The position numbers and the translations under genes are program-made. DNA of 64,000 bases from Eledone cirrhosa (taxonomy: Eukaryota): positions 16,926,001 to 16,990,000 of the forward strand of contig OZ024746.1 in assembly GCA_964016885.1 (NCBI GenBank), read 5' to 3'. The notes beneath the pieces were generated by a model. The model was not told the origin of the DNA. It saw only the letters and a program-made list of their open reading frames with translations, and did no database searches. Shown here in pieces: positions 15,885 to 50,917 of this stretch (positions are counted from its first letter, which is position 1; every line of letters begins with the position of its first letter).

Positions 15885-16110
15885 AAATCGGCTGTGTTCA
15901 GACCCGGAAGTCCGTATTGTATTGCAATTTATCATTTGGTCTGTTAAATCGTGTCCGTTAAACTGTGTTTGTGTGTGTATGTATATACCGCCAACGTCAT
16001 GGAACCCCTGAACCGTATGTCTATTCCGTCCGATCGAGATAGAGGTAGCCAGTTATAAGAACGAGCCGCGCGAACAATGATTGCATCCAACGGGACCGTG
16101 GAACGTTTAT
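15885..16110 (+). promoter_or_regulatory. CpG-enriched candidate promoter and first exon
   Basis: Local CpG excess in non-repeat-looking sequence, ETS/GABP motif CCGGAAGT at 15904-15911, Kozak-like gccaacgtcATGG at 15999, and donor-like C|gtatgt at 16014/16015. Confidence 0.55.
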
Positions 16111-16501
16111 GTGACTCACTGTGATTCTTTCTAAATATAATATATTTTGGAATAAATACTTTATTTGTGTCGCTGGTCGATTATTAAACAGTGGGTCAGT
16201 TTTACAATCGTAATTGAACTCACGATTATTTTAGTATTATTGTTATTCTCGAGGACACTGAAAAAATCAAGTTAAATTGCTGCAAGCTGGACTCAGTGCT
16301 GTATGAGTTCCCTCCCTTACATAGATTCGTTTTTTTTTTGTTTTTTTTTTTTTTAATGCGTAGAATGACCTACCGAATTTATTCAATTGAATGTTATGTC
16401 AAATAGCCTTTATTTGTTTTTTGGCAGGTGGGGTGGGGGTATGTGTTCATTTAATTTCAATAATCTCCGTTAGTCATAACTTACTGTTTAATTTTCCACA
16501 G

Positions 16502-16533
16502 CAAAGAGCTAAAGCATAAAGACTTATTGATAT
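16502..16533 (+). other. Candidate 32-nt exon 2, probably 5' UTR
   Basis: Acceptor ttaattttccacag and donor AT|gtaagt. Joined to exon 1 it gives only MEPLNPKS*, i.e. a uORF. Confidence 0.5.
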
Positions 16534-17293
16534 GTAAGTGCTCGATTTTAAAATCAGATATTTGTCTGAAGGTCTTATTGTATTTACAAATGTGAGGGAT
16601 TCCAAACGCAGAAAACATCTGTAATAAGTCAATCTCTATTGATAATAGTTAAGAAAAATCAATGGCGATGCCGCAGCATGGCCTCAGCTGAAACATGTAA
16701 CAGAGTAATAATTTACATTTAGAGATGGAAAAGGAAAAAAAGTGGACAGAAGTACCTACGAGGAATTGAACCCCTTACTTCTCAAATACCATGCAAGTGT
16801 ATCACCATTATGCTAACACTTCATTAATTCATAAGGTTTATTGATTTTGAATCATCATCATTTTTGTGTCAACTTCTCCATGTACATGGGTTGTACAAGG
16901 CTTGTACAAGTCTGTTGCTATCTCGCCTGTTGCACCTCCTGATGCTAACCTACACTTTATTTCCAAGTATGGTATCTACTGCTGACTATTATCGATCAGC
17001 TAACTGTGGGACATATTATTTACATGGCACATAAATAAATGTCACCACAACATATACAGTGACTTTCTCACTCCCCCTCCTCTCTCTCTCTCTCTCTCAT
17101 TCCTAAAACATTGGTCAGTGTAAAGCTATAGTTCAAGTCACACACTGAAGGTGCCATATGGCAGAATTGAACCACTTCCTTACAAAACCAATTTATTAAC
17201 CACACATCCATGCTTATATAAAGCCATAAGGGAAGCAATAGTTGGTTAAATTAACTCTAGTGCATGATTGATACTATTATATTGACTGTAGTA

Positions 17294-18584
17294 CGAGGGG
17301 GGATCAAAAAGTTTGCGAAATTTTTCAGAAAATATTCTATTTTTCAAAAAATATGATTTATCTTCAATTTAGTTTTCTACATAGTTGCCATCCAGGTCAA
17401 TACACTTCACAAGGCGATGCTTCCAGCTTCGTAAGCCATCTCTAAAGAAAGTTGAAGGCCTTGTTCAAAGCCATGTGTTGGCAGTGTTTTTAGCTTCTTC
17501 AACACCACTAAAACGAGTTCCTTTTAGCATTTCTTTGAGTTTTGGAAAGAGGAAAAAGTCTGATAGGGCTAAATCTGGACTATAAGGCAGGTGAGGAAGC
17601 ACTTCCCATCGAAATTCTCAAAGAACTTATTTTGCAACCCGCGCAGAATTCGCTGGTGCATTGTCATGATCAAACAAGATCCCACCATGAAGTTTCCCTT
17701 TTCGTTTCTTGACTAATGCCTCTTTCAGCTTCCTTAAAACATTTCCATAGTAAGCTCCTATCACAGTTCTTTGACCTTCAAGATAATCTATTAGTATCAC
17801 CCCATCTGATTCCCAGAAAATGGTGGCCATCACTTTTTGATTCGACTTTTGAAATTTGAACTTGATTGGCCCCGATGATCCACGTGGAAGCCACTGTTTT
17901 GACTGTTGTTTGGATTCAGGATCATACTGGTAGATCCAGGTTTCATCTCCGGTGAGGATTCTGGTCAGGAAATGCTCTTCATCAACTTCAATGTTGTTTA
18001 ATATTGCCAAAGTCAGATCACTTCGAAGAATCAGCTGATCAGGGCGCAACGCTTTTGGGACCCATCGCGCTGAAAGCTTGCTTAGTCCCAAATTATCGTG
18101 CAGAATTGAATTTGCCGAACCATATGAAATGTCTAGGGACTTAGCTAACTGATTAACTGTTATTCTTTGATCTTCTTCAATTAAAGTCTGAGCAGCCTCA
18201 ACGTTTTGGTCATCTTTTGATGTTCCTGGTCGTCTTCAAGGTCGTCTCTCCCTTGTTTGAATCGCTGAATCCATTTGTAGACAGCAGTTTTCTTTGGAGC
18301 AGTAGTACCGTAAACTTTAACTAAAGCCTCCATAATCTGTGTCCCTTTCCATTTGAGTTTCACCAGAAACTTGATATTCGATCTTATCGCAAAATAACTA
18401 TTTTCCATTGTTCCAAAAAGAGGTTTTTTAAAGAGTGTCAGTACTGTACAATAGTCCGCGCATAACTGACTGCAAGTGACTGTAAGGTAAACACCCAGTA
18501 ACAATGTTCTGACATGTTTAATATTGTTTTAACCTATTTTTTTCTTACTACGATAAAATTCCCAAACTTTTTGATCCCCCCTCG
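17294..18584 (-). mobile_element. Full-length mariner transposon (DD34D, irritans/Hsmar2-like), 1291 bp
   Basis: TIRs cgaggggggatcaaaaagtttg / caaactttttgatcccccctcg, with TA duplication at 17292-17293 and 18585-18586. Confidence 0.95.
17369..18408 (-). pseudogene. Mariner transposase, disrupted
   Basis: MENSYFAIRSNIKF...ARWVPK...TGDETW...HDNAPA...YSPDLALSDFFLFPKLK...DGNYVEN*, with frameshifts and stops. Confidence 0.92.
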
Positions 18585-18628
18585 TAGAATGAACAGAAAA
18601 TATTGGCTTACAACAGGTGGAATTAAAT

Positions 18629-21600
18629 ACTGTAATGTATCTAGTCTGGCCCTCTCTGTACTCTGTTACACCACTGTAATGTAACTAGTCTGGCTCTCTC
18701 TCTACTCTGTCACACCACTGTAATGTAGCTAGTCTGGCCCTCTCTCTACTCTGTTACACCACTGTAATGTATCTAGTCTGGCTCTCTCTCTACTCTGTCA
18801 CACCACTGTAATGTATCTAGTCTGGCCCTCTCTCTACTCTGTCACACCACTGTAATGTAGCTAGTCTGGCCCTCTCTCTACTCTGTTACACCACTGTAAT
18901 GTATCTAGTCTGGCTCTCTCTCTACTCTGTCACACCACTGTAATGTATCTAGTCTGGCTCTCTCTCTACTCTGTCACACCACTGTAATGTAGCTAGTCTG
19001 GCCCTCTCTCTACTCTGTTACACCACTGTAATGTATCTAGTCTGGCTCTCTCTCTACTCTGTCACACCACTGTAATGTATCTAGTCTGGCCCTCTCTCTA
19101 CTCTGTTACACCACTGTAATGTATCTAGTCTGGCCCTCTCTCTACTCTGTTACACCACTGTAATGTAACTAGTCTGGCCCTCTCTCTACTCTGTTACACC
19201 ACTGTAATGTAACTAGTCTGGCCCTTTCTCTACTCTGTTACACCACTGTAATGTATCTAGTCTGGCCCTCTCTCTACTCTGACACACCACTGTAATGTAG
19301 CTAGTCTGGCCCTCTCTCTACTCTGACACACCACTGTAATGTATCTAGTCTGGCCCTCTCTCTACTCTGACACACCACTGTAATGTAACTAGTCTGGCTC
19401 TCTCTCTACTCTGTTACACCACTGTAATGTATCTAGTCTGGCCCTCTCTCTACTCTGTTACACCACTGTAATGTAACTAGTCTGGCCCTCTCTCTACTCT
19501 GTTACACCACTGTAATGTAGCTAGTCTGGCCCTCTCTCTACTCTGTTACACCACTGTAATGTATCTAGTCTGGCCCTCTCTCTACTCTGTTACACCACTG
19601 TAATGTAGCTAGTCTGGCCCTCTCTCTACTCTGTTACACCACTGTAATGTATCTAGTCTGGCTCTCTCTCTACTCTGTCACACCACTGTAATGTATCTAG
19701 TCTGGCTCTCTCTCTACTCTGTCACACCACTGTAATGTATCTAGTCTGGCCCTCTCTCTACTCTGTCACACCACTGTAATGTAGCTAGTCTGGCTCTCTC
19801 TCTACTCTGTCACACCACTGTAATGTAGCTAGTCTGGCCCTCTCTCTACTCTGTCACACCACTGTAATGTAGCTAGTCTGGCCCTCTCTCTACTCTGTCA
19901 CACCACTGTAATGTAGCTAGTCTGGCCCTCTCTCTACTCTGTCACACCACTGTAATGTAGCTAGTCTGGCCCTCTCTCTACTCTGTCACACCACTGTAAT
20001 GTAGCTAGTCTGGCCCTCTCTCTACTCTGTCACACCACTGTAATGTAGCTAGTCTGGCCCTCTCTCTACTCTGTTACACCACTGTAATGTATCTAGTCTG
20101 GCTCTCTCTCTACTCTGTCACACCACTGTAATGTATCTAGTCTGGCTCTCTCTCTACTCTGTCACACCACTGTAATGTATCTAGTCTGGCCCTCTCTCTA
20201 CTCTGTCACACCACTGTAATGTAGCTAGTCTGGCTCTCTCTCTACTCTGTCACACCACTGTAATGTAGCTAGTCTGGCCCTCTCTCTACTCTGTCACACC
20301 ACTGTAATGTAGCTAGTCTGGCCCTCTCTCTACTCTGTCACACCACTGTAATGTAGCTAGTCTGGCCCTCTCTCTACTCTGTCACACCACTGTAATGTAG
20401 CTAGTCTGGCCCTCTCTCTACTCTGTCACACCACTGTAATGTAGCTAGTCTGGCCCTCTCTCTACTCTGTCACACCACTGTAATGTAGCTAGTCTGGCCC
20501 TCTCTCTACTCTGTCACACCACTGTAATGTAGCTAGTCTGGCCCTCTCTCTACTCTGTCACACCACTGTAATGTAGCTAGTCTGGCCCTCTCTCTACTCT
20601 GTTACACCACTGTAATGTAGCTAGTCTGGCCCTCTCTCTACTCTGTTACACCACTGTAATGTATCTAGTCTGGCCCTCTCTCTACTCTGTTACACCACTG
20701 TAATGTAACTAGTCTGGCTCTCTCTCTACTCTGTCACACCACTGTAATGTATCTAGTCTGGCCCTCTCTCTACTCTGTCACACCACTGTAATGTAGCTAG
20801 TCTGGCCCTCTCTCTACTCTGTCACACCACTGTAATGTAGCTAGTCTGGCCCTCTCTCTACTCTGTCACACCACTGTAATGTAGCTAGTCTGGCCCTCTC
20901 TCTACTCTGTCACACCACTGTAATGTAGCTAGTCTGGCCCTCTCTCTACTCTGTCACACCACTGTAATGTAGCTAGTCTGGCCCTCTCTCTACTCTGTTA
21001 CACCACTGTAATGTAGCTAGTCTGGCCCTCTCTCTACTCTGTTACACCACTGTAATGTATCTAGTCTGGCCCTCTCTCTACTCTGTTACACCACTGTAAT
21101 GTAACTAGTCTGGCCCTCTCTCTCTACTCTGTCACACCACTGTAATGTATCTAGTCTGGCTCTCTCTCTACTCTGTCACACCACTGTAATGTATCTAGTC
21201 TGGCCCTCTCTCTACTCTGTTACACCACTGTAATGTATCTAGTCTGGCTCTCTCTCTACTCTGTCACACCACTGTAATGTATCTAGTCTGGCCCTCTCTC
21301 TACTCTGTTACACCACTGTAATGTAACTAGTCTGGCTCTCTCTCTACTCTGTCACACCACTGTAATGTATCTAGTCTGGCCCTCTCTCTACTCTGTTACA
21401 CCACTGTAATGTAACTAGTCTGGCTCTCTCTCTACTCTGTCACACCACTGTAATGTATCTAGTCTGGCTCTCTCTCTACTCTGTCACACACCACTGTAAT
21501 GTAACTAGTCTGGCTCTCTCTCTACTCTGTCACACCACTGTAATGTAACTAGTCTGGCTCTCTCTCTACTCTGTTACACCACTGTAATGTATCTAGTCTG

Positions 21601-23055
21601 GCCCTCTCTCTACTCTGTTACACCACTGTAATGTAACTAGTCTGGCTCTCTCTCTACTCTGTTACACCACTGTAATGTAACTAGTCTGGCCCTCTCTCTA
21701 CTCTGTTACACCACTGTAATGTAACTAGTCTGGCTCTCTCTCTACTCTGTCACACCACTGTAATGTATCTAGTCTGGCCCTCTCTCTACTCTGTCACACC
21801 ACTGTAATGTATCTAGTCTGGCCCTCTCTCTCTCTGTCACACACCACTGTAATGTATCTAGTCTGGCCCTCTCTCTCTACTCTGTCACACACCACTGTAA
21901 TGTAACTAGTCTGGCCCTCTCTCTCTACTCTGTCACACACCACTGTAATGTAGCTAGTCTGGCCCTCTCTCTACTCTGTCACACACCACTGTAATGTATC
22001 TAGTCTGGCCCTCTCTCTACTCTGTCACACACCACTGTAATGTAACTAGTCTGGCCCTCTCTCTCTACTCTGTCACACACCACTGTAATGTAGCTAGTCT
22101 GGCCCTCTCTCTACTCTGTCACACACCACTGTAATGTATCTAGTCTGGCCCTCTCTCTACTCTGTCACACACCACTGTAATGTATCTAGTCTGGCCCTCT
22201 CTCTACTCTGTCACACACCACTGTAATGTAACTAGTCTGGCCCTCTCTCTCTACTCTGTCACACACCACTGTAATGTATCTAGTCTGGCCCTCTCTCTAC
22301 TCTGTCACACACCACTGTAATGTAACTAGTCTGGCCCTCTCTCTCTACTCTGTCACACCACTGTAATGTAGCTAGTCTGGCCCTCTCTCTACTCTGTTAC
22401 ACCACTGTAATGTAGCTAGTCTGGCCCTCTCTCTACTCTGTCACACCACTGTAATGTAACTAGTCTGGCCCTCTCTCTACTCTGTCACACCACTGTAATG
22501 TAGCTAGTCTGGCCCTCTCTCTACTCTGTCACACCACTGTAATGTAACTAGTCTGGCCCTCTCTCTACTCTGTCACACCAGTGTAATGTAGCTAGTCTGG
22601 CCCTCTCTCTACTCTGTCACACCACTGTAATGTAGCTAGTCTGGCTCTCTCTCTCTACTCTGTCACACCACTGTAATGTAGCTAGTCTGGCCCTCTCTCT
22701 ACTCTGTTACACCACTGTAATGTATCTAGTCTGGCCCTCTCTCTACTCTGTCACACACCACTGTAATGTAGCTAGTCTGGCCCTCTCTCTACTCTGTTAC
22801 ACCACTGTAATGTAACTAGTCTGGCCCTCTCTCTACTCTGTTACACCACTGTAATGTATCTAGTCTGGCCCTCTCTCTACTCTGTCACACACCACTGTAA
22901 TGTAGCTAGTCTGGCCCTCTCTCTACTCTGTCACACACCACTGTAATGTAGCTAGTCTGGCCCTCTCTTTACTCTGTCACACACCACTGTAATGTATCTA
23001 GTCTGGCCCTCTCTCTACTCTGTCACACACCACTGTAATGTAGCTAGTCTGGTTC
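18629..23055 (+). repeat. 44-bp minisatellite, ~100 copies
   Basis: Unit actgtaatgta(t/g/a)ctagtctggc(c/t)ctctctctactctgt(t/c)acacc; 46-48 bp variants cluster after ~21830. Confidence 0.98.
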
Positions 23056-25265
23056 TGTCACATTACAATATTCCCTTTTGATAGCAACATACTCCAAATC
23101 ACCTCTGATTCTATGAAACAAAATCATTCATTTTTAAGGGTTTTTATATAAAATAAAGTCTAGCAGCATACTATACTTATATATAAGGACCATATTTTCA
23201 GTTTATATATATATATATATATATATTATATGCCATCATGAATTCTGGTAGTTAAGAGTTAACATAGTTTAAATAAATACTTCCAATGTATCTATGTATA
23301 TGTGTGTATGAGGAAACTCTCTTCAAATGTTGCTATTAAGGATGTATTATCTAATTCCATACATTGATCATACTTAACATTGTATGTGTTGTTGTTTTTT
23401 GTGTCTACGTATGTGTTTTTGTGTTTGTTTGTGTGTGTGTGTATGTACATATACTTACATTCCAGATAGTAAATATGTGTGTGTGTGTGTGTACATATAT
23501 TTACATACCAGATAGTAAATATATATATATATATATGTGTGTGAACAGGAATACTTACATGCCAGCTGGTTAATAGCTAATCTAAATAAGTACTTTCTCC
23601 TTTAGCTCTCTTATTTTGAAACTTTGGCAAATTCTCCTATTATCTTTTATTCTTCCTTCTATTAATTGGTGACACACAAGTCAAGGGCAATTCTAGAACT
23701 CTTGTATTGAAGAATCTACTTCACTTTCTATGCCAAATCAACTTTCTTTCTCTACTTAGGCCATAGTTGCTGTTGTTCTTTTCCCAAAAAGAAACTTTTA
23801 TCTCTACTCAAAAAAAACCTCTTGAATATCTCACCAATCAAAATAAAAAATAAAAAATTATATAAACCACTGTTTTGATATGACCATTAACATTTATTTC
23901 CTGTTCTGTTTTTCTAATGTTGAACATTTCACAATTTTTAAAACTCATGACATGTGGCCTTGTGGTTAGGGTGTTGGACTCATGATCATAACATCATGGA
24001 TGTGATTTCTGAACTGGGTGGTGGTGTTGTTCCTTCTGTCAGGAGTTGCAACTGCTAGATAGTATCAACAATGGAAAGACCATTGGAAAAGTTGATCTCT
24101 CTCTCTCAAACTTTTGATACTGGGAAGCTATACTGGAGAGAACTTATGGAGAAGCATACAAAAAATCTGATGATGATGATGAATGGACTGGAATGGAATA
24201 CTTCTCTGTTAGTTATAAGAATGGCACTGGTAGATTTTCCTTTTATAGAAAATTCTGGAGTAAATGTTGAGAAAAATAAGAAGTTTTAGTATATTTGTGA
24301 TACTTATTAATACATTTTCACTATTGGAAGTAATTACATTTGAGTAATTATTTTAATGAGATTGGAATAAATTGTTTTTTGGAGACAGGGCAGGTATAAA
24401 TAAGCATGCTTCTATATCTTTGAATGAACACATTGTGAAGATTGAGAGAGGATGGAGAAAGGAAAGGTTTAGAAGTTTGGGGGCATAATTATTTTTAATT
24501 AGGTTTTTGGTGCCCAAGGCATTAAATATATTAAGAATAACTTGACTAAATCTGAAGTGCAATCTTAAGGTCTGCTACAATCCCTGCTATAATAATCTCA
24601 TTAAATATTTAAAACAGTCTTTATATTATATAATTTAAATACTGTGTTGTCTAAGATATCTGTATTAATTTTAGCTATATTTAACAGAGTAATTGTATTT
24701 TGTATGATGTATTTTTGGTTAGATGCCATAGAAAGCTTGGCAAACAAATAGTTGGGAGAACCCATCAGTTGTGTCAAGAACTTAACAACCTCCCTAATGT
24801 TGGTGATCTACATGATAAACACACCCAGTACATGCTATAAAGTGGTTGATGTTAGGAAGGGAATCTAGCCATAGAAAACTTGCCAAGCAAGGGGTTGGGA
24901 GGACCCTTCAATTGTGTCAAACACTTCTGTACTGTCTTACGTTCTCCTGTGCACTTGAGAACATAAGACAGTACAAAAGTGAGATGTTCATTCCCCCTGG
25001 AGCCTGTCTGTGAGATCAGTAGCACCACTTCAGTGGGAAACCCAACCAACACTAGCTAGCAGAGAAAGTGGACATTATATATATATATATATAGCAGAGA
25101 AAGTGGACATTATATATATATATATATAGCAGGGAAAAGCGGACGTAAAATGATGATGATGATGATATGGAGCTAACTGACAAGGGATCTGCAGATCACA
25201 TTTTAGTCGGTCAGCTGTGATGCAGATAAAATGAAGCGCTCAAGCCAGAGCATTATATAGTATTA

Positions 25266-25751
25266 AAAAGATTCGACGTCATATGCTGTTGGTTTAGGTT
25301 TATTTATATCGCTGTGATATATATTTCGTCAAGGACTATGGCTAGATAGTGTTCACCCTACCAATTCCAATAATATTAAAAAATTTCTTTTAAAAAATTC
25401 AAAAACTTCCTTGAAATATTTTTTCCCTTTCGTAATACAAAGGACAACAGAATGTGTTGATGTTGTTTCTATGCCATCTGGCCCATGTATGACCCCTTGT
25501 GCTTTGACAGAAGTGTGGGTCAATATCTGTCCTAAGTCACACTACCATTAAGGTTATGTGGCGGAAGAGGGGATAACTGAAAACAAGAAGTAAACATAGA
25601 ATAAAGTAAATTACAAGAAGTTTTAAAAATATTTTAAAGGTTTTTATACCATCTGATGAGCTAAAGGCTATCTAGACATAGACCTTGGCGAAATATGTAT
25701 CATGGAGATATAAATAAACCTAAGTCAACTGCATATGACCTCCCATCTTTT
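25266..25751. mobile_element. Penelope-like/retrozyme remnant with ~85 bp inverted termini
   Basis: 25266-25349 is the approximate reverse complement of 25668-25751. The right arm overlaps a hammerhead motif. TA-rich flanks. Confidence 0.6.
25643..25714 (+). ncRNA. Type I minimal hammerhead ribozyme
   Basis: CUGAUGA (25653-25659); stem II GCUAA.GG.CUAU/AUAG.CC.UUGGC; GAAA (25690-25693); near-palindromic stem III AUAUGUAU; cleavage triplet AUC (C25701); stem I CCAU/AUGG extended by UUUAUA/UAUAAA. Confidence 0.75.
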
Positions 25752-26570
25752 ATATATATTATTGTTGTTGTTGAACCTCCTTTCTTTGTGACAAGTGTTC
25801 CAGTTGATTCAATCAACAGAACTGCTGCCTGCTCATGGAATTAATGTGTAAGTGGCTGAGTATTCCACAGATACATGTAGTTTTAACCTACTTCTCAGGG
25901 AGATTCAGCATGATGCAATGTGTATGTGTATTATAATGCCATTATGATGATTAGATTATAGCTTTTAAAATTCTAATAACATTTTCTTAATTTATTTACC
26001 ATCTTTGAAGCAATTGTTCTTCACAAACACATCATCAGATAGCTTGAATTTGAAATATTTACTTACTCTGCAGATTGTTTAATTTAATAAATATATAAAA
26101 ATGTTAATAAACTGCAATTTATTGAAATGTTTTTAAAAAATCCTCATTTATTTATGTCAAAATTAAAAAAAAATATTTATAAACTTGACAAAACAGATGT
26201 CAATATGTCACAATGGCACTTTAGAAAGAGTGACAGGTGCTGTATTTTGTGTTTTATATAGTTCAGTGCTATGTAAATTACACTTTACTGTACTGCCCAT
26301 ACACCTCCCACATGTTTTAGTTGAAGTTTTGAATGTCTGCTACTGAAGGTGAGTGGTGTAGTAGTTAGAGTATTGGACTTAGAATTGTAAAGTTGTGTGT
26401 TCATTTCCTGGACTGGGTGGTGTGTTTTGTTCTTGAGCAAGACACTTTATTCACATTGCTCCAGTTCACTTAACTGAAAATGAGTATCAGTCATAGCTAG
26501 GAGTGAACACAATAATGGGCTGACATCCTGTGTAGGAGGAAGTCTCGAACTCTTAACTACTTATATTTAC

Positions 26571-26610
<40 letters not shown>

Positions 26611-26861
26611 ATCATTTGACACTACTTGTAGAGACATTTATGTCCAACATAAATCAGATGTGCTGTGATTCAGTAGTTAGCTACCCTACTTAGAAAAAAA
26701 GGGTACATTAGCATCAGGAAAGACATCTGGTTTTAGAAAAGCTGCCGTAACTCTTTCAATACCATATATCTAATGAAACTCAGTGCCTATGATTTGCTAT
26801 TAATTTGAAAACAATCAAGAATTTGGAGGGATTTTGTAATATAACTTTCTCGTTATTAAGT

Positions 26862-27011
26862 TGGTGTAGTGTTGGAGAATTTCAGGAAGCATGGAGGTTT
26901 TAAAGGATGCAGTGTCTCGGCAGCTAACGACTGATGCAGGTAGTTTGTTCCATGGAGGTTTTAAAGGATGCAGTGTCTCGGCAGCTAACGACTGATGCAG
27001 GTAGTTTGTCC
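26862..27011 (-). mobile_element. CR1/L2-like LINE 3' end with internal 61-bp tandem duplication, inserted in a piggyBac-like MITE
   Basis: Minus strand reads WNKLPASVVSCRDTASFKTSM (WNxLP...FK motif). 26890-26950 is repeated at 26951-27009. Confidence 0.75.
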
Positions 27012-28019: not shown

Positions 28020-28115
28020 TTGTTTTTCCTTTTCTCTTTACTTCCAGGTAAGTTAGCATTTTGGCAGAAAGATCTTTGGTTATTTACTCTATTTTCTACT
28101 GTTCCATTGGTGAGT
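28020..28115 (+). other. Candidate recursive splice site with 62-nt cryptic RS-exon
   Basis: ttgtttttccttttctctttacttccAG|GTAAGT (junction 28047/28048), then a second donor ttG|GTGAGT at 28110. Confidence 0.65.
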
Positions 28116-29875: not shown

Positions 29876-29906
<31 letters not shown>

Positions 29907-31859: not shown

Positions 31860-31890
<31 letters not shown>

Positions 31891-31995: not shown

Positions 31996-32052
<57 letters not shown>

Positions 32053-36420: not shown

Positions 36421-36461
<41 letters not shown>

Positions 36462-38572: not shown

Positions 38573-40154
38573 CAGGATAGTTTGGTATCAAAAGAATTTT
38601 GTACTGAAATGAAGTTTCTACTTTCTTTCATTCTTTTTGTTTTGTTTTTCTCTTTTTCTTTCACACTTTCTTTCTTTGCTTCTTTTTATCTATTTTCTTC
38701 TTTCTCAAGCGTTCTTTCTTTCCCCATTGTATTTTTCTTTTTCTTTTCTTCTGTCACTTCTTCCTCTCTCTCTGGCTTTATTTCTCTTTTTTTTTTGTTT
38801 CTTTATTCTATGTTTTTTATTAGTTTTTTTCTTTCATTCATTTTCCCTTCTTCCTACTTTCTCCTTTCCTTCCTTCTCTCTTTCACATCACACAATATAC
38901 AGCAGTAGAAATAGACAGAACACAAGAATAGTAGAAACAAAACAACCTTAACTACAACTACAACATCATCAATTATTTCAAGCTGTGAGAAATCTTTCAA
39001 CTATTATGAAAGACCAGTGATTGGTATTCATTAAACGACAACAACATCAACAGTTGCTATATAATCTTTATTATACTTGCTGTCGTTACCAAGAGACATT
39101 ATCAAGGTCATATCTCCACTTCATTACAACTTATTCTTTCATTCGTGCAAGATTTTTTTTTTTTTTTTTTTTTTTTTACTATTAATATAAGGAAGACAAG
39201 AATGGTAGATTGGTAGTATTGGTCAGTTGGTGATATTTGTTGTGGCTCTTTAGGTTTAAATCCCACCAAGGTCAGCGTTACTTTTCATCTTTCTGGAGTA
39301 AAAAAAAAAATAAAGTACCGGTCAAGTATTTGGGCTAATTTAATTAACCTTGCCCTTCCCCCATAATTTGCTGGCTTTGTGTTTGAATTAGTAATCAATA
39401 TAATAAAGGACACAGAAATATATTGCCCTAGACTAGTCTGCAATATGGGAGAGTGTTCTCCCACATTGTCCAGACATATATCATTGCAGTAGTGTTGATA
39501 GTGGTCTGTGTACTTATGTATATATATTTACCTTTTAGACACACACATTTTATAATTACATCCTGTGTATAAGGCAGTCCTACAGTACAGCCATGTCTTT
39601 GTAATTGTTTTTTCTAAACATGAACCATGTTATCCACTTTATTTTATTAACTCAGAAAGTATGAAAGACAAACTTGACCTTGGTTAAAAGTAACCAAAGT
39701 CTAGGTGGTGGTATTAGCAATGGATTAACTATACTGCCCTCTTCCTACCCTTTTTCATCTTACTCTCTATCTTCATATATCACATTCTCTCTCTCTCTCA
39801 CCCTCTCTGATTCTCCATTGTAGTTTCTTCCCCTTCCTCCACAACACAACACTACACACCCATTTTCTCTATCTGTCTCTATTATCTCTCTAAACTCTCT
39901 AGATCTAAACAACAACCAGGAGTTGTTCTATGTAATAGATGACACTTTGTTCTCTTCTGTTCTGTTTACTCTAACTCCTAGTTTATTTTTCAACAACACA
40001 GACTACATTGTTTCAACCTGGAAATACTGTTGAATGTCTGAAATACTGTTGAATGTCTCTACATGACATCTTTTATATACACACTGTTTCATAATATAAC
40101 ATCAGTTATAAACCCCCAACCCCCACCCCCACCCCCCACACACACACACACGCA

Positions 40155-40350
40155 CATCAAGTTTAATATAGAAATGGCTTCTACTACAGGACTAGAACTA
40201 TTTCATCCAGAAGAAATCATTAGGAAAGCCTGATGATTTCTTCTGAATGAAACATTTCTAGTCCTGTAGAAGCCATTTCTATATCAAACTTGATGTTTAC
40301 ACTCTACTAATGTATTGAATACCTTTCTAAGTGTGGTTACCTCCAATTGA
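40155..40350. mobile_element. Head-to-head inverted Penelope pLTR-like pair with a hammerhead-like motif
   Basis: Arms 40155-40224 and 40229-40295 around loop aaag. The right arm has cCTGATGAtttcttctgaatGAAAC. Same family as 34755-34880, next to the GIY-YIG remnant. Confidence 0.6.
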
Positions 40351-40663
40351 ACCTGGGACTCACACACACACACACACTCATATATATGTATATGTACATA
40401 TGTGTGTGTGTGTGTATTTTACTCTTCTATTGGTTTCGCTCATTAAACTATCCATGTAGGAGCACCACTTTGAAGGGATTTAGTTGGTCATATACACATC
40501 AGTACTTATTTTTTTCAAAACTGGGTCCTTGTTTTATCAATCTTTCTGTCGAACTGTTAAGTTACAGGATACAAACAAATATCACAAATTATTGCATGAT
40601 GATATTTGTTTTTGAAATGCGCATTATAAAATACATGGAACTCATTTAACCATCTTTTGATCT

Positions 40664-40705
<42 letters not shown>

Positions 40706-41094
40706 TCATCATCATCATCATTATCATCGTTTAACGTCTATCTTCCACACTAGCATGGGTTAAAAGGGAGTTGTCCCACTTGAGGCAAGATTGGTCGGGT
40801 GACCGTGTCTCGCTCGTATAGGACTATCTGGCAGGTTTTTTATGGTTGGATGCCCTTCCTAACACCAACCATATTTACAGTGTGGACTGGAAGCTTTTTA
40901 CCGTGTTACCTACACGGCCACATTACAACATGGACTGTGTGTTTTTTTGTTGTGACACCTACACCACATATATATATAAGGATAAAGATCCCATAACTCC
41001 TTGTGGAGTCGTAGAGGCACCGTCAAACGGCATGTCTAGGGTACTTTTAAACCTGGCCAAGCCCAACCCTCTCTAGGCCTGAACACAGTCGATT

Positions 41095-41269
41095 ATTTCT
41101 ATAGAGGAAAAATCAACCCCAGTACTGGACTGGTACTTTTTTCATCGACCTCGAAAGGATAAAAGGCAAGGTTGATCCTGGCGGGATATGAATTCAGAGT
41201 GCACAATGAGGTGGGATGGATACCGTAAAGCATTCTATCCGATGTCTTAACGACGCTGTCAATTCGCTG

Positions 41270-41272
<3 letters not shown>
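41095..41272 (-). mobile_element. Deu/Nin-type SINE
   Basis: ctggtacttttttcatcgacctcgaaaggataaaaggcaaggttgatcctggcgggatatgaattcag. Confidence 0.75.
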
Positions 41273-41317
<45 letters not shown>

Positions 41318-41467
41318 ATGGGTGTATATGAAAGCATATACTATAAGTTTCTATACAATAAACATATGGTAATCTCGCTATTAAAGAAAAATATTTTTTT
41401 GTAACAAAACAATTATTTTTCTTTCTTGTTCTGTGAACATGTCACAGAATGCACGCAACCGGTAATT

Positions 41468-42930
41468 TTGGTTGGTCAGTGGGTCATTGGTGTTTGGTTG
41501 GTTAGTGGGTCATTGGTGTTTGGTTGGTTAGTGGGTCATTGGTGTTTGGTTGGTTAGTGGGTCATTGGTGTTTGGTTGGTCAGTGGGTCATTGGTGTTTG
41601 GTTGGTTAGTGGGTCATTGGTGTTTGGTTGGTCAGTGGGTCATTGGTGTTTGGTTGGTTAGTGGGTCATTGGTGTTTGGTTGGTCAGTGGGTCATTGGTG
41701 TTTGGTTGGTTAGTGGGTCATTGGTGTTTGGTTGGTTAGAGGGTCATTAGTGTTTGGTTGGTTAGTGGGTCATTGGTGTTTGGTTGGTCAGTGGGTCATT
41801 GGTGTTTGGTTGGTTAGTGGGTCATTGGTGTTTGGTTGGTTAGTGGGTCATTGGTGTTTGGTTGGTTAGTGGGTCATTGGTGTTTGGTTGGTCAGTGGGT
41901 CATTGGTGTTTGGTTGGTTAGTGGGTCATTGGTGTTTGGTTGGTCAGTGGGTCATTGGTGTTTGGTTGGTTAGTGGGTCATTGGTGTTTGGTTGGTTAGA
42001 GGGTCATTAGTGTTTGGTTGGTTAGTGGGTCATTGGTGTTTGGTTGGTCAGTGGGTCATTGGTGTTTGGTTGGTTAGTGGGTCATTGGTGTTTGGTTGGT
42101 TAGTGGGTCATTGGTGTTTGGTTGGTTAGTGGGTCATTGGTGTTTGGTTGGTTAGTGGGTCATTGGTGTTTGGTTGGTTAGTGGGTCATTGGTGTTTGGT
42201 TGGTTAGTGGGTCATTGGTGTTTGGTTGGTCAGTGGGTCATTGGTGTTTGGTTGGTTAGAGGGTCATTAGTGTTTGGTGGGTCATTGGTGTTTGGTTGGT
42301 TAGTGGGTCATTGGTGTTTGGTTGGTTAGTGGGTCATTGGTGTTTGGTTGGTTAGTGGGTCATTGGTGTTTGGTTGGTCAGTGGGTCATTGGTGTTTGGT
42401 TGGTTAGTGGGTCATTGGTGTTTGGTTGGTTAGTGGGTCATTGGTGTTTGGTTGGTTAGTGGGTCATTGGTGTTTGGTTGGTTAGAGGGTCATTAGTGTT
42501 CGGTTGGTTAGTGGGTCATTGGTGTTTGGTTGGTTAGAGGGTCATTAGTGTTTGGTTGGTTAGTGGGTCATTGGTGTTTGGTTGGTCAGTGGGTCATTGG
42601 TGTTTGGTTGGTTAGTGGGTCATTGGTGTTTGGTTGGTTAGTGGGTCATTGGTGTTTGGTTGGTTAGTGGGTCATTGGTGTTTGGTTGGTTCGTGGGTCA
42701 TTGGTGTTTGGTTAGTCAGTGGGTCATTGGTGTTTGGTTGGTTAGTGGGTCATTAGTGTTTGGTTGGTCAGTGGGTCATTGGTGTTTGGTTGGTTAGTGG
42801 GTCATTGGTGTTTGGTTGGTTAGTGGGTCATTGGTGTTTGGATGGTTAGTGGGTCATTGGTGTTTGGTTGATCAGTGGGTCATTGATGTTTTGTTGGTCG
42901 GTGGGTCATTGGTATTTTGCTGGTCAGTGA
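41468..42930 (+). repeat. 26-bp G/T-rich minisatellite, ~56 copies
   Basis: Unit ggttggt(t/c)agtgggtcattggtgttt; period 26 (41479 to 41505). Confidence 0.97.
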
Positions 42931-42994
42931 AAGAGCAAAGCAATAAGATAAAGGGTCTATGATCAAAATAATAAGTAAAGCTCAAGTGAAAATA

Positions 42995-43523
42995 ATATTG
43001 GACTACAATCTTATAGATCTAACATAATATGGGACTACCATCTTATAGATCTAACATTCCAATATTGGACTACCATCTTATAGATCTAACATTCCAATAT
43101 TAGACTACCAACTTATAGATCTAAAATTATAATATTGGACTACCACTTTATAGATCTAACATTATAATATTGGACTACCATCTTATAGATCTAACATAAT
43201 ATTGGACTACCACTTTATAGATCTAACATTATAATATTGGACTACCATCTTATAGATCTAACATAATATTGGACTACCATCTTATAGATCTAACATAATA
43301 TTGGACTACCACTTTATAGATCTAACATTATAATATTGGACTACCATCTTATAGATCTAACATAATATTGGACTACCACTTTATAGATCTAACATAATAT
43401 TGGACTACCACTTTATAGATCTAACATTATAATATTGGACTACCATCTTATAGATCTAACATAATATTGGACTACCACTTTATAGATCTAACAATATTAG
43501 ACTACCACCTTATAGATCTAACA
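42995..43523 (+). repeat. 32/35-bp minisatellite, ~16 copies
   Basis: Unit aatattggactacca(tc/ct)ttatagatctaacat(tat). Confidence 0.95.
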
Positions 43524-43981
43524 TGCCATTCCAATGCAGGAGGGGTTCTCTTGAATCTCTCAGCTGTAATTGGGAATATATTGAGGATCACATGAGTGTT
43601 AGCTGTGATAGATTGGCATGCTATCTAATCATGATTCCAATGACACATGTGAGGACCAGATATCAATTCAAGATCTTGTTTCAGCTGTCCACCTTGTTGT
43701 TTACACCATTCTGGGAAGGACTTTCATGTGACTGTATTGTCAATGTGTTTGCCTAACTATGTGATAGGCACCATATAAAAACAACTTTTACAAAAAATCT
43801 TTTCTCAAATGCTGGCTGCAACCAGCATTACAAACTAATACTAACCAAGCTCAGTGTCACAGTCATCTGATAGACTGTGAACTAGTTTTGATTCCAATAG
43901 CAGACACTATATATGTAAGGATCAGATATCAATTCAAGTTGTGGCTTATTTATATTAATTCATGTTTTCAGCTGTCCACTA

Positions 43982-44850
43982 TCATTTACACTATCCCAGA
44001 AGGGGCTGTGATAAAACCCTCATTTACATCATCCCAGAGGGACCCATGATGTGATTATCATTTACACTATCCTGGAAGGGGCCATGATATGACCCTCATT
44101 TAGACTATCCCAGAAGGGGCTGTGATGTAACCCTCATTTACACTATCCCAGAAGGGGCTGTGATATGACCCTCATTTACACTATCCCAGAAGGGGCTGTG
44201 ATATGACCCTCATTTACACTATCCCAGAAGGGGCTGTGATGTGACCCTCATTTACACCATTCCAGAAGGGCCCATGATGTGATTATCATTTATACTATCC
44301 CAGAAAGTCCCATGATGTGATTAGCATTTACACCATCCCAGAAGGGGCTGTGATGTAACCCTCCTTTACACTATCCCAGAAGGGGCTGTGATGTAACCCT
44401 CCTTTACACTATCCCAGAAGGGGCTGTGATGAAACCCTTATTTACACCATCCCAGAGGGGCCCATGATGTGATTATAATTTACACTATCCTAGAAGGGGC
44501 CATGATATGACCCTCATTTACACCATCCCAGAAGGGACTGTGATGTAACCCTCCTTTACACTATCCCAGAAGGGGTTGTGATGTAACCCTCATTTACACT
44601 ATCCTAGAAGGATCCATGATTTGATTATCATTTACACTATCCTAGAAGGGCCCATGATATGATTATCATTTACACTATCCTAGAAGGGCCCATGATATGA
44701 TTATCATTTACACTATCCTAGAAGGGCCCATGATATGATTATCATTTACACTATCCTAGAAGGGCCCATGATATGATTATCTTTCACAGCATCTCAGAAG
44801 GATCCATGATGTAACCCATTTACACCATCCCAGAAGGGGTTGTGATGTGA
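43982..44850 (+). repeat. 38-bp minisatellite, ~23 copies, two unit types
   Basis: catttacactatcccagaaggggctgtgatatgaccct and catttacactatcctagaagggcccatgatatgattat; period 38 (44173 to 44211). Confidence 0.95.
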
Positions 44851-45556
44851 CTACTCTGCAGATGAGTTTGTCTAACCATATGATATGCATCTTACAAAAG
44901 ACATTTTTTTAAAAATCTTTTCTCCGAGGTTTGATATTTGAGATAGAATTGGGCTATTTTAAATGATAAACTAGTTTTTGTTGTTGTTATTGTTTTTTTT
45001 CACCATTTTGTGTTCTTTTGTGTTCTTTGTCTACTAAATATAGTATTACATTATAAACATAAACTGGCTTTAGTTGTAACTGGGGTTGTATTACTACTCT
45101 AGTTAGACTGGGTGGGTGTCTGGTGTAGGGGAATTCAGTAGGAACCAAATTTGATAGTGACAGTAGTTTCTGTTACAGTTTTATCTAGAAATGGTGTTGT
45201 TGTTGTTGCGTTTAACTGTTATATTTACATAAAATGATGGGGGTGTTTTCTTCTTTCAATCTCTGAAAATTCTCTTCTACTTAAATATAGCAGTAACTCT
45301 TAATATCCTGAACCACATGAAACCACATTAGCACTACAACTTAATTACGCTAAAAATTAGTCTTTACTCTAATATTGCAAATTTTCACCAGTAAAGGTAT
45401 TATAAACATTTGAATGAACAAACCAGCTTTTCTATATTTTCTGCTACAGGGTGTTAAGAGTTAATTCTATGCTTCAATTTGGGAACGACTATGGCTTTCT
45501 GTATAAAGATTTCTGACATTTATGGAAGAAATTATAAAACAAGATAAATTAGTCTT

Positions 45557-45836
45557 GTGTGTGTGTGTGTTTTTATCTATGGATGTGTGTGTGTGTGTGT
45601 TTATGGATGTGTGCGTGTTTATCTATAGATGTGTGTGTGTATGTGTTTTTATCTATGGATGTGTGTGTGTGTGTTTATGGATGTGTGCGTGTTTATCTAT
45701 AGATGTGTGTGTGTATGTGTTTTTATCTATGGATGTGTGTGTGTGTTTATCTATAGATGTGTGTGTGTTTATCCATGGATGTGTGCGTGTTTATCTATAG
45801 ATGTGTGTGTGTTTATCCATGGATGTGTGTGTGTGT
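45557..45836 (+). repeat. Compound (TG)n/tttatctat(g/a)ga repeat
   Basis: Repeated tgtgtgtgtttatctatggatg. Confidence 0.9.
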
Positions 45837-45936
45837 GAGTGTTTGTGGTTGTATGTTATACCTGTTGATCTAATGATGTGTGTGTGTGTATGTACATAAA
45901 TGTTTTGATTACTCTGCAGGAATTAAGTATCTTACC

Positions 45937-46200
45937 CACCACCATCATCACCATCACCAGCCCCAGCACCATCACCACCACCACCACCATCAATAACACT
46001 ACCACCACCATCATCACCATCACCAGCCCCAGCACCATCACCACCACCATCACCACCACCATCATCACCATCACCATCACCAGCACCATCTCCATCACTA
46101 TCAACACCACCACCACCATCAGCACCACCACCACTTCTACCATCACCACCATCACTACCACTCACCACTGCCACTCACCACTATCAACACCACCATCACT
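45937..46200 (+). repeat. Degenerate (CAC/CAT)n microsatellite
   Basis: caccaccatcatcaccatcacc run. Confidence 0.9.
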
Positions 46201-47660
46201 ACTACCCTTCATCTCCTTTTCCAAACCAATACTGCTATCATTGACTCATCTCTATTATCATTAACTAAAATGGAGGATAATTCTCTTTGTTTTTACTTTC
46301 ATCTAATTTTTATCACTTATTTTTTACTTAACTGGTTTCTGTGAGATAATAGCAAGTATATTATCACTGGTAAATTGTTATTTTTATGTCTGAAAGTTGT
46401 TGCTGTTTAGCCCCAGATAAGCCTTGATTGACTGCAGCAAAGACATTCCTGCTCTAACTAGCCTATCTTGTTTACAGCCAGAATATATTTAAGATTACAT
46501 TAAGACAGTAGCGTATGATTTAAGGGAGATTTTAGTTGCTATTTTTAGTAGCTTCAGTGACCATGTAGAGGTGCTCTCAACGTGGTTCACAGAAAATCTG
46601 CTAAACAAAAGGTCAGGAGGATTGTTCAGTTGAGTGAATGTCATGGCAACTCATTAGTGCTGGTGCAATGATAAAATTCCACCGGTGTACACTGTACAGC
46701 ATCGGATGCCTGCCTCCATCCCATTTTAGTAGGAATGTATGTAAGCAAGATGCAGGCCCTTTGCCCATCTAGGAGGTCAGTAGCTGTAATTAAATACTGA
46801 TGCAATACTGTAGCAAAGAAAACAGATGTTAAATGATGATGATATTTCTTGACACTTTAATGGTTCTGTGAAATTGACAGCAGGTGCAAGTGTGTCTGTG
46901 TAGTTAAGATGTTTATTACACACCCATGTAGTTTTGAGTTCTATCTCAGTGTGGTGTCTTCTAATACTGCCATTGGTTGTCCAATGTTTCGCAAGTGAGG
47001 TTATGGTGTGGAAGCCTGTCAAATATAGCCTTGTGTGTGTGTGTGTGTGTTAGTGTTTGCATGCATTTGTGTGAGTCTGTGTGCGTGTGAGCTTGTGTCT
47101 TCATGTCGCTTTTGACACCACATCCACTGGTAAATATTTGTTTATGTCCCTCATGTCAGCAGCTCCACATACTTTACTTTAAAAAAAACCAGGGCATCTT
47201 GCCATCGAAAAACAAAATATCTCAAAATATCTCATTCAAACCTTGCCAGTATGGAAACACGTGAATGTAAAAACACTGCTTCTGCTGATGATTGTAGGAG
47301 TAAGATAAGTTTATTCATCATAATTGTATTTATCTATTACTTTTGTACTTCCTTGTAAACTACAAATTAATTTACTTTGTTATTATGTAAACATCCTAAA
47401 ATATAATCCTAGTGATTTTATTTCTTTCTCTGTCATCAAATATCTATCAATACTTGTACAAACCATGAGAATAATCATAATCTGTGTCTCTCTGTGACAC
47501 ACAAATGCTATGACCTGTCAAAAATGTTCCAAAACTGTTATTCAGAGTTCATGGAACAAAAAAGTTGAGATGGGAAATACAGAAAATGTTTAAAAATCAT
47601 TCATTCATGCCAGAGATTAACATTCTCTTTGTACAATGTTCTCTCTCTCTCTCCACATAT

Positions 47661-47880
47661 ATCATCATCATCATCATCATTTTACGTCCGCTTTTCCCTG
47701 CTTGCAAGGGTGGGATGGGTCCTATTAAGTATGGCATCTCTCCATTCGTCACGGTCCTTTGTCGTCTCCTCCGTGAGCTTCAGCGGTCCAAGGCCTACTG
47801 TCACCACCTCCGCCCATGTTTCTCGTGGTCTTCTTAGACTGCATCTTCCTTCTTCTGGGATTTCTTTGGTTATGTTTGGA
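47661..47880 (-). mobile_element. RTE LINE 3' end with (CAT)n tail; related copy at 51305-51545
   Basis: Minus strand reads RRPRETWAEVV...KDRDEWRDAILNRTHPTLASREKRT followed by aaaatgatgatg. Confidence 0.8.
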
Positions 47881-47942
47881 ACACACATATATATGTGTGT
47901 GTGTGTGTTTATATATATATATGTATACACACACACACACAG

Positions 47943-48020
47943 AGGGTGTCCCCCAAAAATGTATACATACTTTTATTAGAATACTGCTGAAGTGTGTATA
48001 CATTTTGGGGGGACATCCTG
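47943..48020. mobile_element. ~80 bp Tc1/mariner-type MITE (almost entirely TIR)
   Basis: agggtgtcccccaaaaatgtatacatactt / aagtgtgtatacattttggggggacatcct. Confidence 0.75.
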
Positions 48021-48801
48021 TGTATGTGTGTATATATATATATATGTATGATAGCTGTTACAGAACATAACCAAAAGGAGCCGGTTGTTAAGCGTGCATT
48101 GTTAACGTACATAGACACATATAATCAACGAACCTAGCTTTGTTACAATCTGGTTATATAGTAGTAGCGGTGGTTGTGGTGCTAGTAGTAGTAGTGGGGG
48201 CTTTTAATTTGACACAAGGCCAGCAATTCAATCAACATCTCTCTCATCAAATTGCTGGCCTTGTGCCTTAATAATAATGGGCTCTAATTTTGGCACAAAA
48301 CCACCAGTTTGGGAGGAGGTGAAAGTTGATTATATCAACCTCAGTATTTGACTGGTACTTTATTTTATCAACTTTGGAAGGACGAATGACAAAGTTGATT
48401 TGAACTCAGAACATGAAGATGGAGTAGATATTTTCTTTGATGCTCTAACAATTCTATCAATTACCTGATCAAGATAATAACAATGATAAGCACAAGGCCA
48501 GAAATTGAGTGGGGTGGTCTGTTGATTACATTGACCCCTTCCCCAGTACTTGATTGGTACTTTATTTAATTGACCCTGGAAGGTTGAATGGCAAAGATGA
48601 CTGTAGTCAGATTTGTAAAGAGCTGTAAAACTTTTTCTCTGATGTTTTACCATTTCTGCCAATCCACTAACCTTGATAACTACAATAACAACAGCAACAG
48701 CAATGTTAAACACAAAAGACACATTTCTATTTTACACTCAACTCTCTCCTATAATTACCTTTCCTTCTTCCCCTTCTCTCTCTCTCACTCACTCTCTCAG
48801 C

Positions 48802-49652
48802 ATTCCTTCATTCACAATAAAATTTCAATATACCAACTCATATAACACCATATGTTGGTACCTTTTGATATTTTCATATACATAGATACATGAGTTATAA
48901 TACTGCTAATCCTTTCAAAGTAGGCCCTTTCTACTTTCACGCAATTACCTTAAACCTAGCCCTAACCCAGCAATCTTTCCTCTGTTCAACTCACATTTGA
49001 AAGATTTTTACTAGAATGGCTCTCGGATCCACCACTGCAGTCTGTCTGATACCCTGTTAGCTCTCAAAGAAGTTAGGAGGAGTCATGTCTGGAAAGTAAA
49101 GAGCCTGCTGAATCAGTGAATGCCTTTCTTTGCCAATAAATTTTGGATCAGTTGTGATAAATGAGCCAGCATTGTCATGATGCAGCTGCCAGTTTTACGA
49201 AGCCTACAGACCTGGTTTCTTGGTACCGACTTCATGATGGTACTCCTTTGTAACTGTTTGTCTTTTTGGGTGTGTATTTATGATACACAATGCTTTGGTA
49301 GCTTAGCCTGTTGGTTGAAGCAGCTTACTGAGGTATGGCTACTGGGCTGCGCAATCAATTAACTAGATGTCATGGGTAAGAGTTGCAAGGCAGTCCGAAA
49401 CCAAAGTCTTCTAGTTACTCTTGAAGGGTGAGAACACAACTGCTATTTGACAGAGGTGCTCTCCATGAAACAAACACACACACACACACACACTTATAGT
49501 TATATGTATTTACACATATCCACACTATGACATACACACAAACTGATACACATACACCTTTCATAGACAGTTATATATTCATGCATATACATTTCATATT
49601 TTGATAGACATAGACATAGTTTTAAACAATCTCTCTCTCTCCCTCCCTCCCC

Positions 49653-49717
<65 letters not shown>

Positions 49718-50617
49718 CCTCTCTCTCTCTGACACATGCACAATTTCAAATAATTAATTTCGATTGAAATTTTGTTCTTTGCGCCCTCTGCCCTGCCTGC
49801 CAAAATCATTTAATTACCAAGTGCCAAAGATGTCATTGGTATTTAAAAAGAACATTCTTCCCACCTCTGCCCCAACCACCTGCAGACAAGCATCTGTGTT
49901 ATTTCCTATGACTTTAACCCTTTTGATACCAAACCACCTGAAATGACCCCCTGGGTTTATGTTTATTTTAAAGTGTTAAGTTATATTCCAAACACCAATA
50001 TAATGAGAAAGTTAGTTACATTACTAAATCCCCTCAAATTCTTGATTATTTTAAAAATCAATTGAAAATCAAATTAGAAATATGAATCGAGTGACATGTC
50101 CTTGAGCAAGACACTTTATTTCATTTCATTCAGCTGTGGAAAATGAGTTGTACTTGTAATTCATCATGCTTTTCTCAGCTTGCATGTGTTTGATGAATTT
50201 TCTCCGGCACAACTTTCTTTTACTTGTCACCTTCCTTCATCATATCTTCTGTGAGGTTCAGCATTCTGAGATCAGCTCTCATTACCCCCCCACCCCTCTC
50301 TCTCTCAAGGGATTCCTTCATTCACAATAACATTTCAATATACCAACTCATATAACACCATATGTAGGTACCTTTTGCTATTTTTATAGACATAGATACA
50401 TGAGTTATAATGCTGCTAATCCCTTCAAAGTAGGCCCTTTCTACTTTCACACAATTACCTTAAACCTAACCCCAACCCAACAATCCTTCCACTGTTCAAA
50501 TCATATCTGAAATGTTTTTACTAGAATGGTTCTCAGATCCACCACTGCAGTCTGTCTGATGTCCTGTCACCTCTCAAAGAAGTCAGAAAGAGCCACTTCT
50601 AGAGAGTATGGAGCCTG
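48802..50617 (+). repeat. ~305-bp direct repeat pair (48802-49107 and 50312-50617)
   Basis: attccttcattcacaataa...taccaactcatataacaccatatg...ccactgcagtctgtctgat...ctctcaaagaag...gagcctg in both copies, moderately diverged. Confidence 0.9.
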
Positions 50618-50819
50618 GCACACAAACATTATACATGCTGACCTCATTTCTTTTTAATATTTGCACATCTACATTCAATGTCCATATCACACTTCCATGC
50701 AACACCACACTTCATATGAAAGCCTCATATAATCTACCATATATGGTTTTATCTATACCAGCATAGCAGAAATAGATGTTAAATGATGATATATATTTTT
50801 CAAATTCTCTTTTAAAACT

Positions 50820-50917
50820 ATATTTTCTTTTTGGTTTTATTTCTAGGTAAGAAAATGTCAGTTTTTCCCTGTCTCTTCTGTGTGTCACCCCAAGATTATG
50901 ACCTTGACATGGTCAGA
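50820..50917 (+). other. Candidate recursive splice site with 65-nt cryptic RS-exon
   Basis: tattttctttttggttttatttctAG|GTAAGA (junction 50846/50847), then a weaker donor ATG|GTCAGA at 50912. Confidence 0.55.

Follow-up and report, generated by a model that had tools for sequence, protein, structure and literature searches.

CSK and its predicted leader intron

We analyzed a 64,000-nt window (the whole stretch examined, positions numbered from its first letter) of the 3.0-Gb genome of the octopod Eledone cirrhosa (contig OZ024746.1; G000:C6:16,926,001-16,990,000). Two motifs on its + strand, at 28047 and 50846, have a pyrimidine-tract acceptor fused directly to a splice donor. Both are in sense orientation to the tyrosine kinase gene CSK, upstream of its coding exons. 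We consider it probable that both are ratchet points of the Drosophila type, by which a predicted 53.9-kb intron in the 5′ untranslated region (5′UTR) of CSK would be removed in three steps.

The tyrosine-kinase exons of CSK were found on the + strand within 200 kb downstream of the window. A 56-aa exon showed 96-98% identity to CSK of Octopus vulgaris, O. bimaculoides and O. sinensis, and a complete Octopus CSK protein could be placed exon by exon on the + strand past the window. Coding begins in an exon of 118 nt that ends in MPMDRQ|GTAAGC (G000:C6:16,996,414-16,996,531 = L003:6414-6531, +) and starts 6,414 nt beyond the window; its N-terminus, MPMDRQ, is exactly that of Octopus CSK isoforms. 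The N-terminus MKGVSIQ... of O. bimaculoides found no match. The acceptor of the first coding exon is intron-like, its AG-free zone being 78 nt, and the exon is without a CpG block of its own, so CSK needs non-coding exons further upstream.

The best candidate for this upstream part is a CpG-rich promoter-like block at 15801..16300 (+), with a CpG observed/expected ratio of 1.05-1.5. It holds CCGGAAGT at 15904-15911, which we take to be an ETS-type motif and which is the sole copy of this 8-mer, in either orientation, in the window and 200 kb downstream (264 kb). Other nearby CpG-rich blocks that were checked, at 9.5 kb and 63 kb, are copies of an interspersed repeat. A predicted non-coding exon 1 (15885..16014, +), whose start is uncertain, ends at the donor ACC|GTATGT at 16015 and contains two short upstream open reading frame (uORF) starts. 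A predicted 32-nt 5′UTR exon 2 (16502..16533, +) is bounded by AG and GTAAGT and scores 4.9 for its acceptor and 3.3 for its donor, TAT|GTAAGT. All splice scores are relative values from a hand-made matrix of consensus frequencies that was untrained on this genome. The predicted spliced leader would carry uORFs of 10 and 8 codons. We infer that the block and exons 1 and 2 belong to CSK. The resulting intron would measure 53,880 nt; its 3′ end is fixed by the MPMDRQ exon, and its 5′ exons are predicted from motifs alone. A 200-N assembly gap (L004:262-461; G000:C6:17,000,262-17,000,461) lies 3.7 kb past the first coding exon, outside the interval between the promoter block and that exon.

Alternatively, the splice elements may be real while the promoter and exons 1 and 2 belong to another, non-coding transcript, or CSK may start elsewhere, in which case the boundaries of the intron would differ. 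The donor of exon 1 is weak (0.2), and both exons are predictions. Further units with an acceptor and a donor are present at 32788-32825, 52166 and 56503-56528 of the window and at L003:4284-4333 (68284); these could be extra 5′UTR exons or chance. In addition, CSK has an alternative first coding exon, MRSLFATN (L007:5102-5125; G000:C6:17,035,102). As this exon sits inside the 72.7-kb intron that follows the MPMDRQ exon, transcripts started from it would skip both ratchet points. On the other side, the MPMDRQ exon comes with an acceptor and lacks a CpG block of its own. An exon scan of the 100 kb upstream yielded nothing recognized as a coding gene, its candidates not having been searched for homologues, and the excess of T over A is positive on the + strand over the whole interval. 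We regard a different transcript or start as quite unlikely.

Two ratchet-like sites on the sense strand

The first site (28018..28053, +) consists of a long pyrimidine tract (18/19 pyrimidines), TT at -6/-5 and CAG|GTAAGT, with the AG ending at 28047. Its acceptor reaches 9.3, whereas the 13 CSK exon acceptors that were scored go no higher than 6.3, and it is preceded by an 89-nt AG-free zone with 82% AT. Read depth indicated a single copy with no listed variant, as judged from three runs over 23600-28250 that behave as genomic DNA of one sample, possibly the assembly's own. A donor downstream, TTG|GTGAGT at 28110 (4.8), closes a 62-nt unit (28048..28109, +) whose length is not a multiple of 3 and which we read as a cryptic recursive-splice (RS) exon. 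Joining exon 2 to 28048 would regenerate TAT|GTAAGT, the very 9-mer of the donor of exon 2. Support for this site is strong, and it is very likely a recursive-splice ratchet point.

We considered the possibility that 28048-28109 is mainly an expressed alternative 5′UTR exon, either an included RS-exon or an ordinary cassette, that uses the donor at 28110 and changes the CSK leader. On the untrained matrix the cryptic donor (4.8) outscores the regenerated one (3.3), the opposite of the usual order in flies. Inclusion carries no frame penalty in a UTR, and as the unit precedes the CSK start codon a frame-preservation test is not binding for it. Both O. sinensis and O. bimaculoides also have four accessions listed for the MPMDRQ protein, which fits several leaders. 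An expressed exon leaves two features of the genome-wide class described below unexplained, namely the preference for GTAAGT at exon starts (120 vs 54) and the missing frame bias. Partial inclusion fits a ratchet point too, and because the intron is in the 5′UTR, occasional inclusion of the 62-nt exon would not break the reading frame. Predominant expression of the exon seems improbable to us. Its inclusion is predicted to turn a 25-codon uORF into an ATG-TAA start-stop; that CSK additionally uses such a switch is an unlikely extension.

The second site (50817..50852, +) is weaker. It has an AT-rich tract (16/19 pyrimidines), TT at -6/-5 and TAG|GTAAGA, with the AG ending at 50846. Its acceptor scores 4.9 and follows a 69-nt AG-free zone with 86% AT. 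A cryptic exon (within 50847..50982, +) might be closed by ATG|GTCAGA at 50912 (65 nt, 0.5) or by CAG|GTGAAA at 50983 (136 nt, 3.0), neither of which is convincing. No donor of at least 1.5 occurs at +20..+110; a donor of at least 3 in that range is also absent in 36/67 strict class members.

These properties raise the possibility that 28047 is the sole real ratchet point and that at 50846 an AG|GT arose by chance in a sense strand rich in AT. The intron would then be cut into 11.5 and 42.4 kb. The acceptor of 50846 is below that of every strict-class member (minimum 5.3), and donors of the GTAAGA type are weakly enriched genome-wide, with about 24 distinct sites vs about 11 with C and 8 with G at the last position (counted by eye). 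Against a chance origin stand the TT, the AG-free zone and the AT content of 50846, as well as the rarity of comparable sites. In 400 order-4 Markov simulations of the intron, with strength thresholds set post hoc, 0 sites of the strength of 28047 were obtained and 0.01 per intron of that of 50846. No further site at the level of 50846, again a post hoc threshold, was found on either strand of roughly 1.0 Mb scanned elsewhere in this genome (264 kb + 100 kb + 352 kb + 200 kb + 87 kb), where the closest miss scored 4.2/4.1 and was on the minus strand. Moreover, sites with GTAAGV donors (V, any base except T) show some excess of downstream donors genome-wide (7 vs 1.7 expected). A single ratchet point is possible, if doubtful; 50846 is moderately supported and is itself fairly likely to be a second one.

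The initial annotation, made from the sequence alone, had described the CpG/ETS block with its donor at 16015, the AG/GTAAGT-bounded segment 16502-16533 and the two tandem motifs with their long tracts, and all of these are present, the exon status of the 32-nt segment being a prediction. The pieces of ~11.5 kb and ~22.8 kb it had given for the intron measure 11,514 and 22,799 nt. Its impression that the minus strand of the window holds no equal site also holds. AGGT[AG]AG occurs 12 times in the window, six times on each strand, and only 28047 and 50846 have a long tract; none of the 6 minus-strand matches does, and the ten other matches have 6-12 pyrimidines in 19. It had further seen no convincing exon for tens of kb. 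The 62-nt cryptic exon with its donor at 28110 had been overlooked. Its suggestion of recursive splicing at this gene gains support from the sense orientation of the sites, the cryptic exon at 28047, the TT at both sites and the existence of an enriched class of the fly type.

We propose the following route for the intron. The acceptor at 28047 and the donor at 28110 would define the 62-nt cryptic exon, and exon 2 would be spliced to 28048, rebuilding TAT|GTAAGT. The regenerated donor would then be used, and the cryptic exon would leave with the next segment. The same step would be repeated at 50847 and end at the MPMDRQ exon. Judged by the mature mRNA, the intron would seem to have left in one piece. 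The predicted segments are 16534..28047 (+; 11,514 nt, T>A skew 0.125), 28048..50846 (+; 22,799 nt, T>A skew 0.102) and 50847 to the acceptor of the MPMDRQ exon (+; 19,567 nt in total, of which 50847..64000 is in the window).

The second segment is rich in tandem repeats. Minisatellite arrays at 18629-23052, 36842-38572, 41467-42929 and 61173-62858, with units of 44, 24, 26 and 3 nt, make up a large share of the intron and account for its long open reading frames; those of the window are tandem repeats or, by eye, transposon remnants. Transposase-like remnants, of mariner type by eye, lie on the minus strand at 17627-18528 and 59260-60096. An Rfam search of the window gave 0 matches.

Further along, CSK has two tandem SH2 exons that are 49% identical (L014:3246-3476, G000:C6:17,103,246; L014:9019-9237, G000:C6:17,109,019). 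As each belongs to different annotated Octopus isoforms, they are likely mutually exclusive. An inverted partial duplicate of CSK follows the gene closely on its downstream side, 163-171 kb beyond the window on the minus strand (L014:3227 to L020:622 region, in L019-L020; G000:C6:17,153,227-17,160,622). Its SH2 and kinase exons are 84-100% identical to those of CSK and no SH3 exons were found in it; either a young paralogue or an artefact of the assembly may explain it. Another gene, at L022:3320-7365 (G000:C6:17,183,320-17,187,365, +), has divergent SH2-like and kinase-like exons with about 31% identity to CSK.

A genome-wide class of similar motifs

The frequency of such motifs was examined across the genome with the strict pattern Y12-N-YAG|GTAAGT. 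The pattern matched 120 times and its reversed form 30 times. Controls with one element altered gave 54 matches when +6 was changed (GTAAGV, three bases together, tandem copies included), 111 when +1 was changed (HTAAGT, three bases; one repeat family made up 8/30 loci examined) and 86 when the AG was broken (three bases). A purine tract gave 67 matches vs 93 for its reversed form, and wider donors gave 199 vs 92. With a shorter tract the pattern was no more frequent than its reversed control (123 vs 127), so the motif excess is limited to long tracts.

Of the 120 loci, the first 70 listed were studied, of which 3 paralogous duplicates were removed (n=67); 7/30 control loci (one repeat family) and 1/30 were likewise removed. 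A second donor of at least 4 at +20..+110 was present at 24/67 class loci, compared to 2.9 expected from the flanks; counted alike, the opposite strand gave 5, the upstream side gave 1, and the control loci gave 1/23. The cryptic exons defined in this way have a median length of 55 nt and no frame bias (length mod 3 = 11/11/9), and 13/31 are closed in all frames, which is not what frame-preserving open coding exons would look like. The sequence CTRAY occurred upstream at 24/67 class loci, with about 9 expected and 4/23 at control loci, and the upstream AT content was 0.79 vs 0.64. TT at -6/-5, which the pattern does not demand, was found at 58/67 class loci vs 9/23 control loci.

Among 100 listed sites, 19 adjacent pairs were less than 1 Mb apart, compared to 4.4 expected from rough chromosome lengths. 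After removal of three likely duplicates, one by identical motif only, 15/16 neighboring pairs within 1 Mb were on the same strand vs 3/6 for controls. We rejected transposons as the source of the class, as only 3 near-identical duplicate pairs were present among 70 loci and no common family was seen.

These data also bear on the possibility that both CSK motifs are neutral chance matches, derived from repeats, or ordinary donors of unrecognized pyrimidine-rich exons. About 20% of strict matches are expected as background, both from an estimate with independent and identically distributed bases and from the controls, 2/67 class members (L102 and L143) resemble ordinary exon donors, and the short-tract pattern is without excess. 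On the other hand, no simulated intron contained a site as strong as 28047, which is single-copy and lies behind an intron-like, AT-rich, AG-free zone, and class members are mostly unrelated in sequence. We consider such an origin very improbable and the genome-wide class of ratchet-like sites, with high confidence, real. On balance we also lean toward a genome-wide system in octopods of a few hundred silent ratchet points of the fly type with cryptic exons of ~55 nt.

A second host gene is likely the one for the calcium-channel subunit alpha2delta. Two strict sites (L134 and L135; G000:C4:186,842,144 and 186,972,247, minus), with cryptic exons of 46 and 62 nt and strong donors, lie upstream of an alpha2delta exon. 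This exon, which matches residues 38-64 of the homologue P0107, is 51.6 kb downstream of L134 on the strand of the motif, and a VWA_N exon follows further on; L134 and L135 are likely a coding-intron example. Their placement in intron 1 is tentative because no exon 1 of alpha2delta turned up in the sequence pieces examined. Elsewhere, four strict sites (L137-L140; G000:C4:227.98-229.16 Mb, minus) share one strand over 1.2 Mb, which suggests a very long gene or gene cluster. An exon candidate at L167 found no homologue, and neither 200 kb downstream of 4 class members nor 87 kb around L135 contained further RS-like sites.

Several observations, in addition to the exon-1 and regenerated donors, the features of 50846, the short-tract counts and the two ordinary-looking class members already mentioned, weigh against the proposal of ratchet points at CSK and in this genome. 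A scan of the 72.7-kb CSK intron after the first coding exon, the longer of the two, found no ratchet-like site, so intron length alone does not call for one. A CATAG|GTAAGT 26.5 kb beyond the window, just after the first coding exon, was rejected because it is below the acceptor threshold. TT at -6/-5 is also present in 7/13 ordinary CSK acceptors. The class does not differ from controls in the length of the AG-free zone (p=0.25) or in T>A skew (p=0.19), and of the control acceptors that have a class site within 300 kb, 3/4 share its strand. In a test set beforehand, the 50 kb downstream of 4 class sites were scanned and the host strand was settled at 1/4. The following features of a ratchet point were found here: the juxtaposed pyrimidine-tract YAG|GTRAG, the sense strand, TT at -6/-5, genome-wide enrichment and, at 28047 and in the class, the cryptic exon. 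None of the sequence-level features with a clear outcome failed; the 5′ boundary of the intron, the cryptic donor of 50846 and the competition between donors are not among these.

Probable recursive splicing in a cephalopod

What follows on other animals is drawn from the accessible parts of the papers cited. In flies, ratchet points are tandem acceptor/donor sites, numbering more than 500, with a cryptic exon of about 50 nt that is generally out of frame; the cryptic exon is defined, the exon upstream becomes attached to the AG, and the regenerated donor is used so that the cryptic exon is removed with the next segment (PMC8605326). TT occupies -6/-5 in 196/197 fly sites, the mean intron is 45 kb, and segments range over 2.6-63.6 kb with a mean of 18 kb (10.1101/006163). 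A ratchet site is found in 63% of fly introns longer than 40 kb, and such sites are enriched in first introns (PMC6110457). The CSK sites and the class resemble these in the tandem acceptor|donor, the prominent pyrimidine tract, the TT and, for 28047 and the class, a cryptic exon of about 50 nt. The predicted intron is likewise long and 5′-proximal, and its segments of 11.5, 22.8 and 19.6 kb would be inside the fly range. They differ from the fly in phylum (Spiralia), in being predicted here from sequence, and in the regenerated donor of 28047, which is not above the cryptic donor on the hand-made matrix. Their density also seems lower, with about 100 strict sites per 3.0 Gb and none in the 72.7-kb CSK intron or in 287 kb near other sites.

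In mammals, about nine intronic sites are firmly silent and expressed RS-exons number in the thousands (PMC8605326). The 28047 unit is like the latter in that the 5′ end of the exon doubles as a donor and competition between donors would set its inclusion. Unlike mammals, this genome has a fly-like excess of non-coding, frame-blind units. A motif survey reported enrichment of RP-sites in fly, mosquito, bee, beetle and sea urchin, and none in the large introns of vertebrates (ratio <=1.5); as far as its accessible part goes, it included no mollusc or other spiralian, and it compared annotated sense and antisense strands (PMC2773006). Our class agrees with those sites in that the motif outnumbers its controls in the genome of a non-vertebrate animal. 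In contrast to the accessible part of that survey, cryptic exons were examined here, and our controls were altered or reversed motifs rather than annotated strands.

According to the part of 10.1101/2024.12.11.627982 that is open, RNA has demonstrated recursive splicing in flies, mice and humans; in lungfish, levels are like those of humans. The accessible part of PMC13149111 makes no mention of molluscs. The initial annotation knew of no description in cephalopods, and our literature search, from which subscription papers were mostly absent, likewise found no report of recursive splicing for molluscs, cephalopods or octopus, nor, among the papers listed first and judged by title or opening of the abstract, for other spiralians. 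Fly Csk had no match in the supplements of PMC6110457 (Pai 2018), a weak negative. Total RNA-seq data, depleted of rRNA, exist for Octopus vulgaris tissues, and CSK had 0 matches in the readable supplements of that paper (PMC9699675, accessible part). As the same computational enrichment has already been published for insects and sea urchin, a mollusc would fill a gap rather than upset an expectation; the fly design of ratchet points would be new for the lineage and of a kind already known.

The exact junctions predicted at CSK and about 100 candidate sites make this reading testable with existing RNA-seq. Flies have hundreds of silent sites and mammals a handful, and the anatomy of the octopod sites bears on the question of whether such sites are an insect speciality or an ancestral animal state. 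GTAAGT, TT at -6/-5 and a frame-blind cryptic exon of ~55 nt are fine anatomy common to this spiralian genome and flies. If our reading is correct, octopods would provide the first spiralian case. Taken together with insects and sea urchin, they would then suggest that a device for long introns was ancestral to bilaterians and was largely lost in vertebrates. The reading would matter also for the annotation of cephalopod genomes and for the biology of long cephalopod genes.

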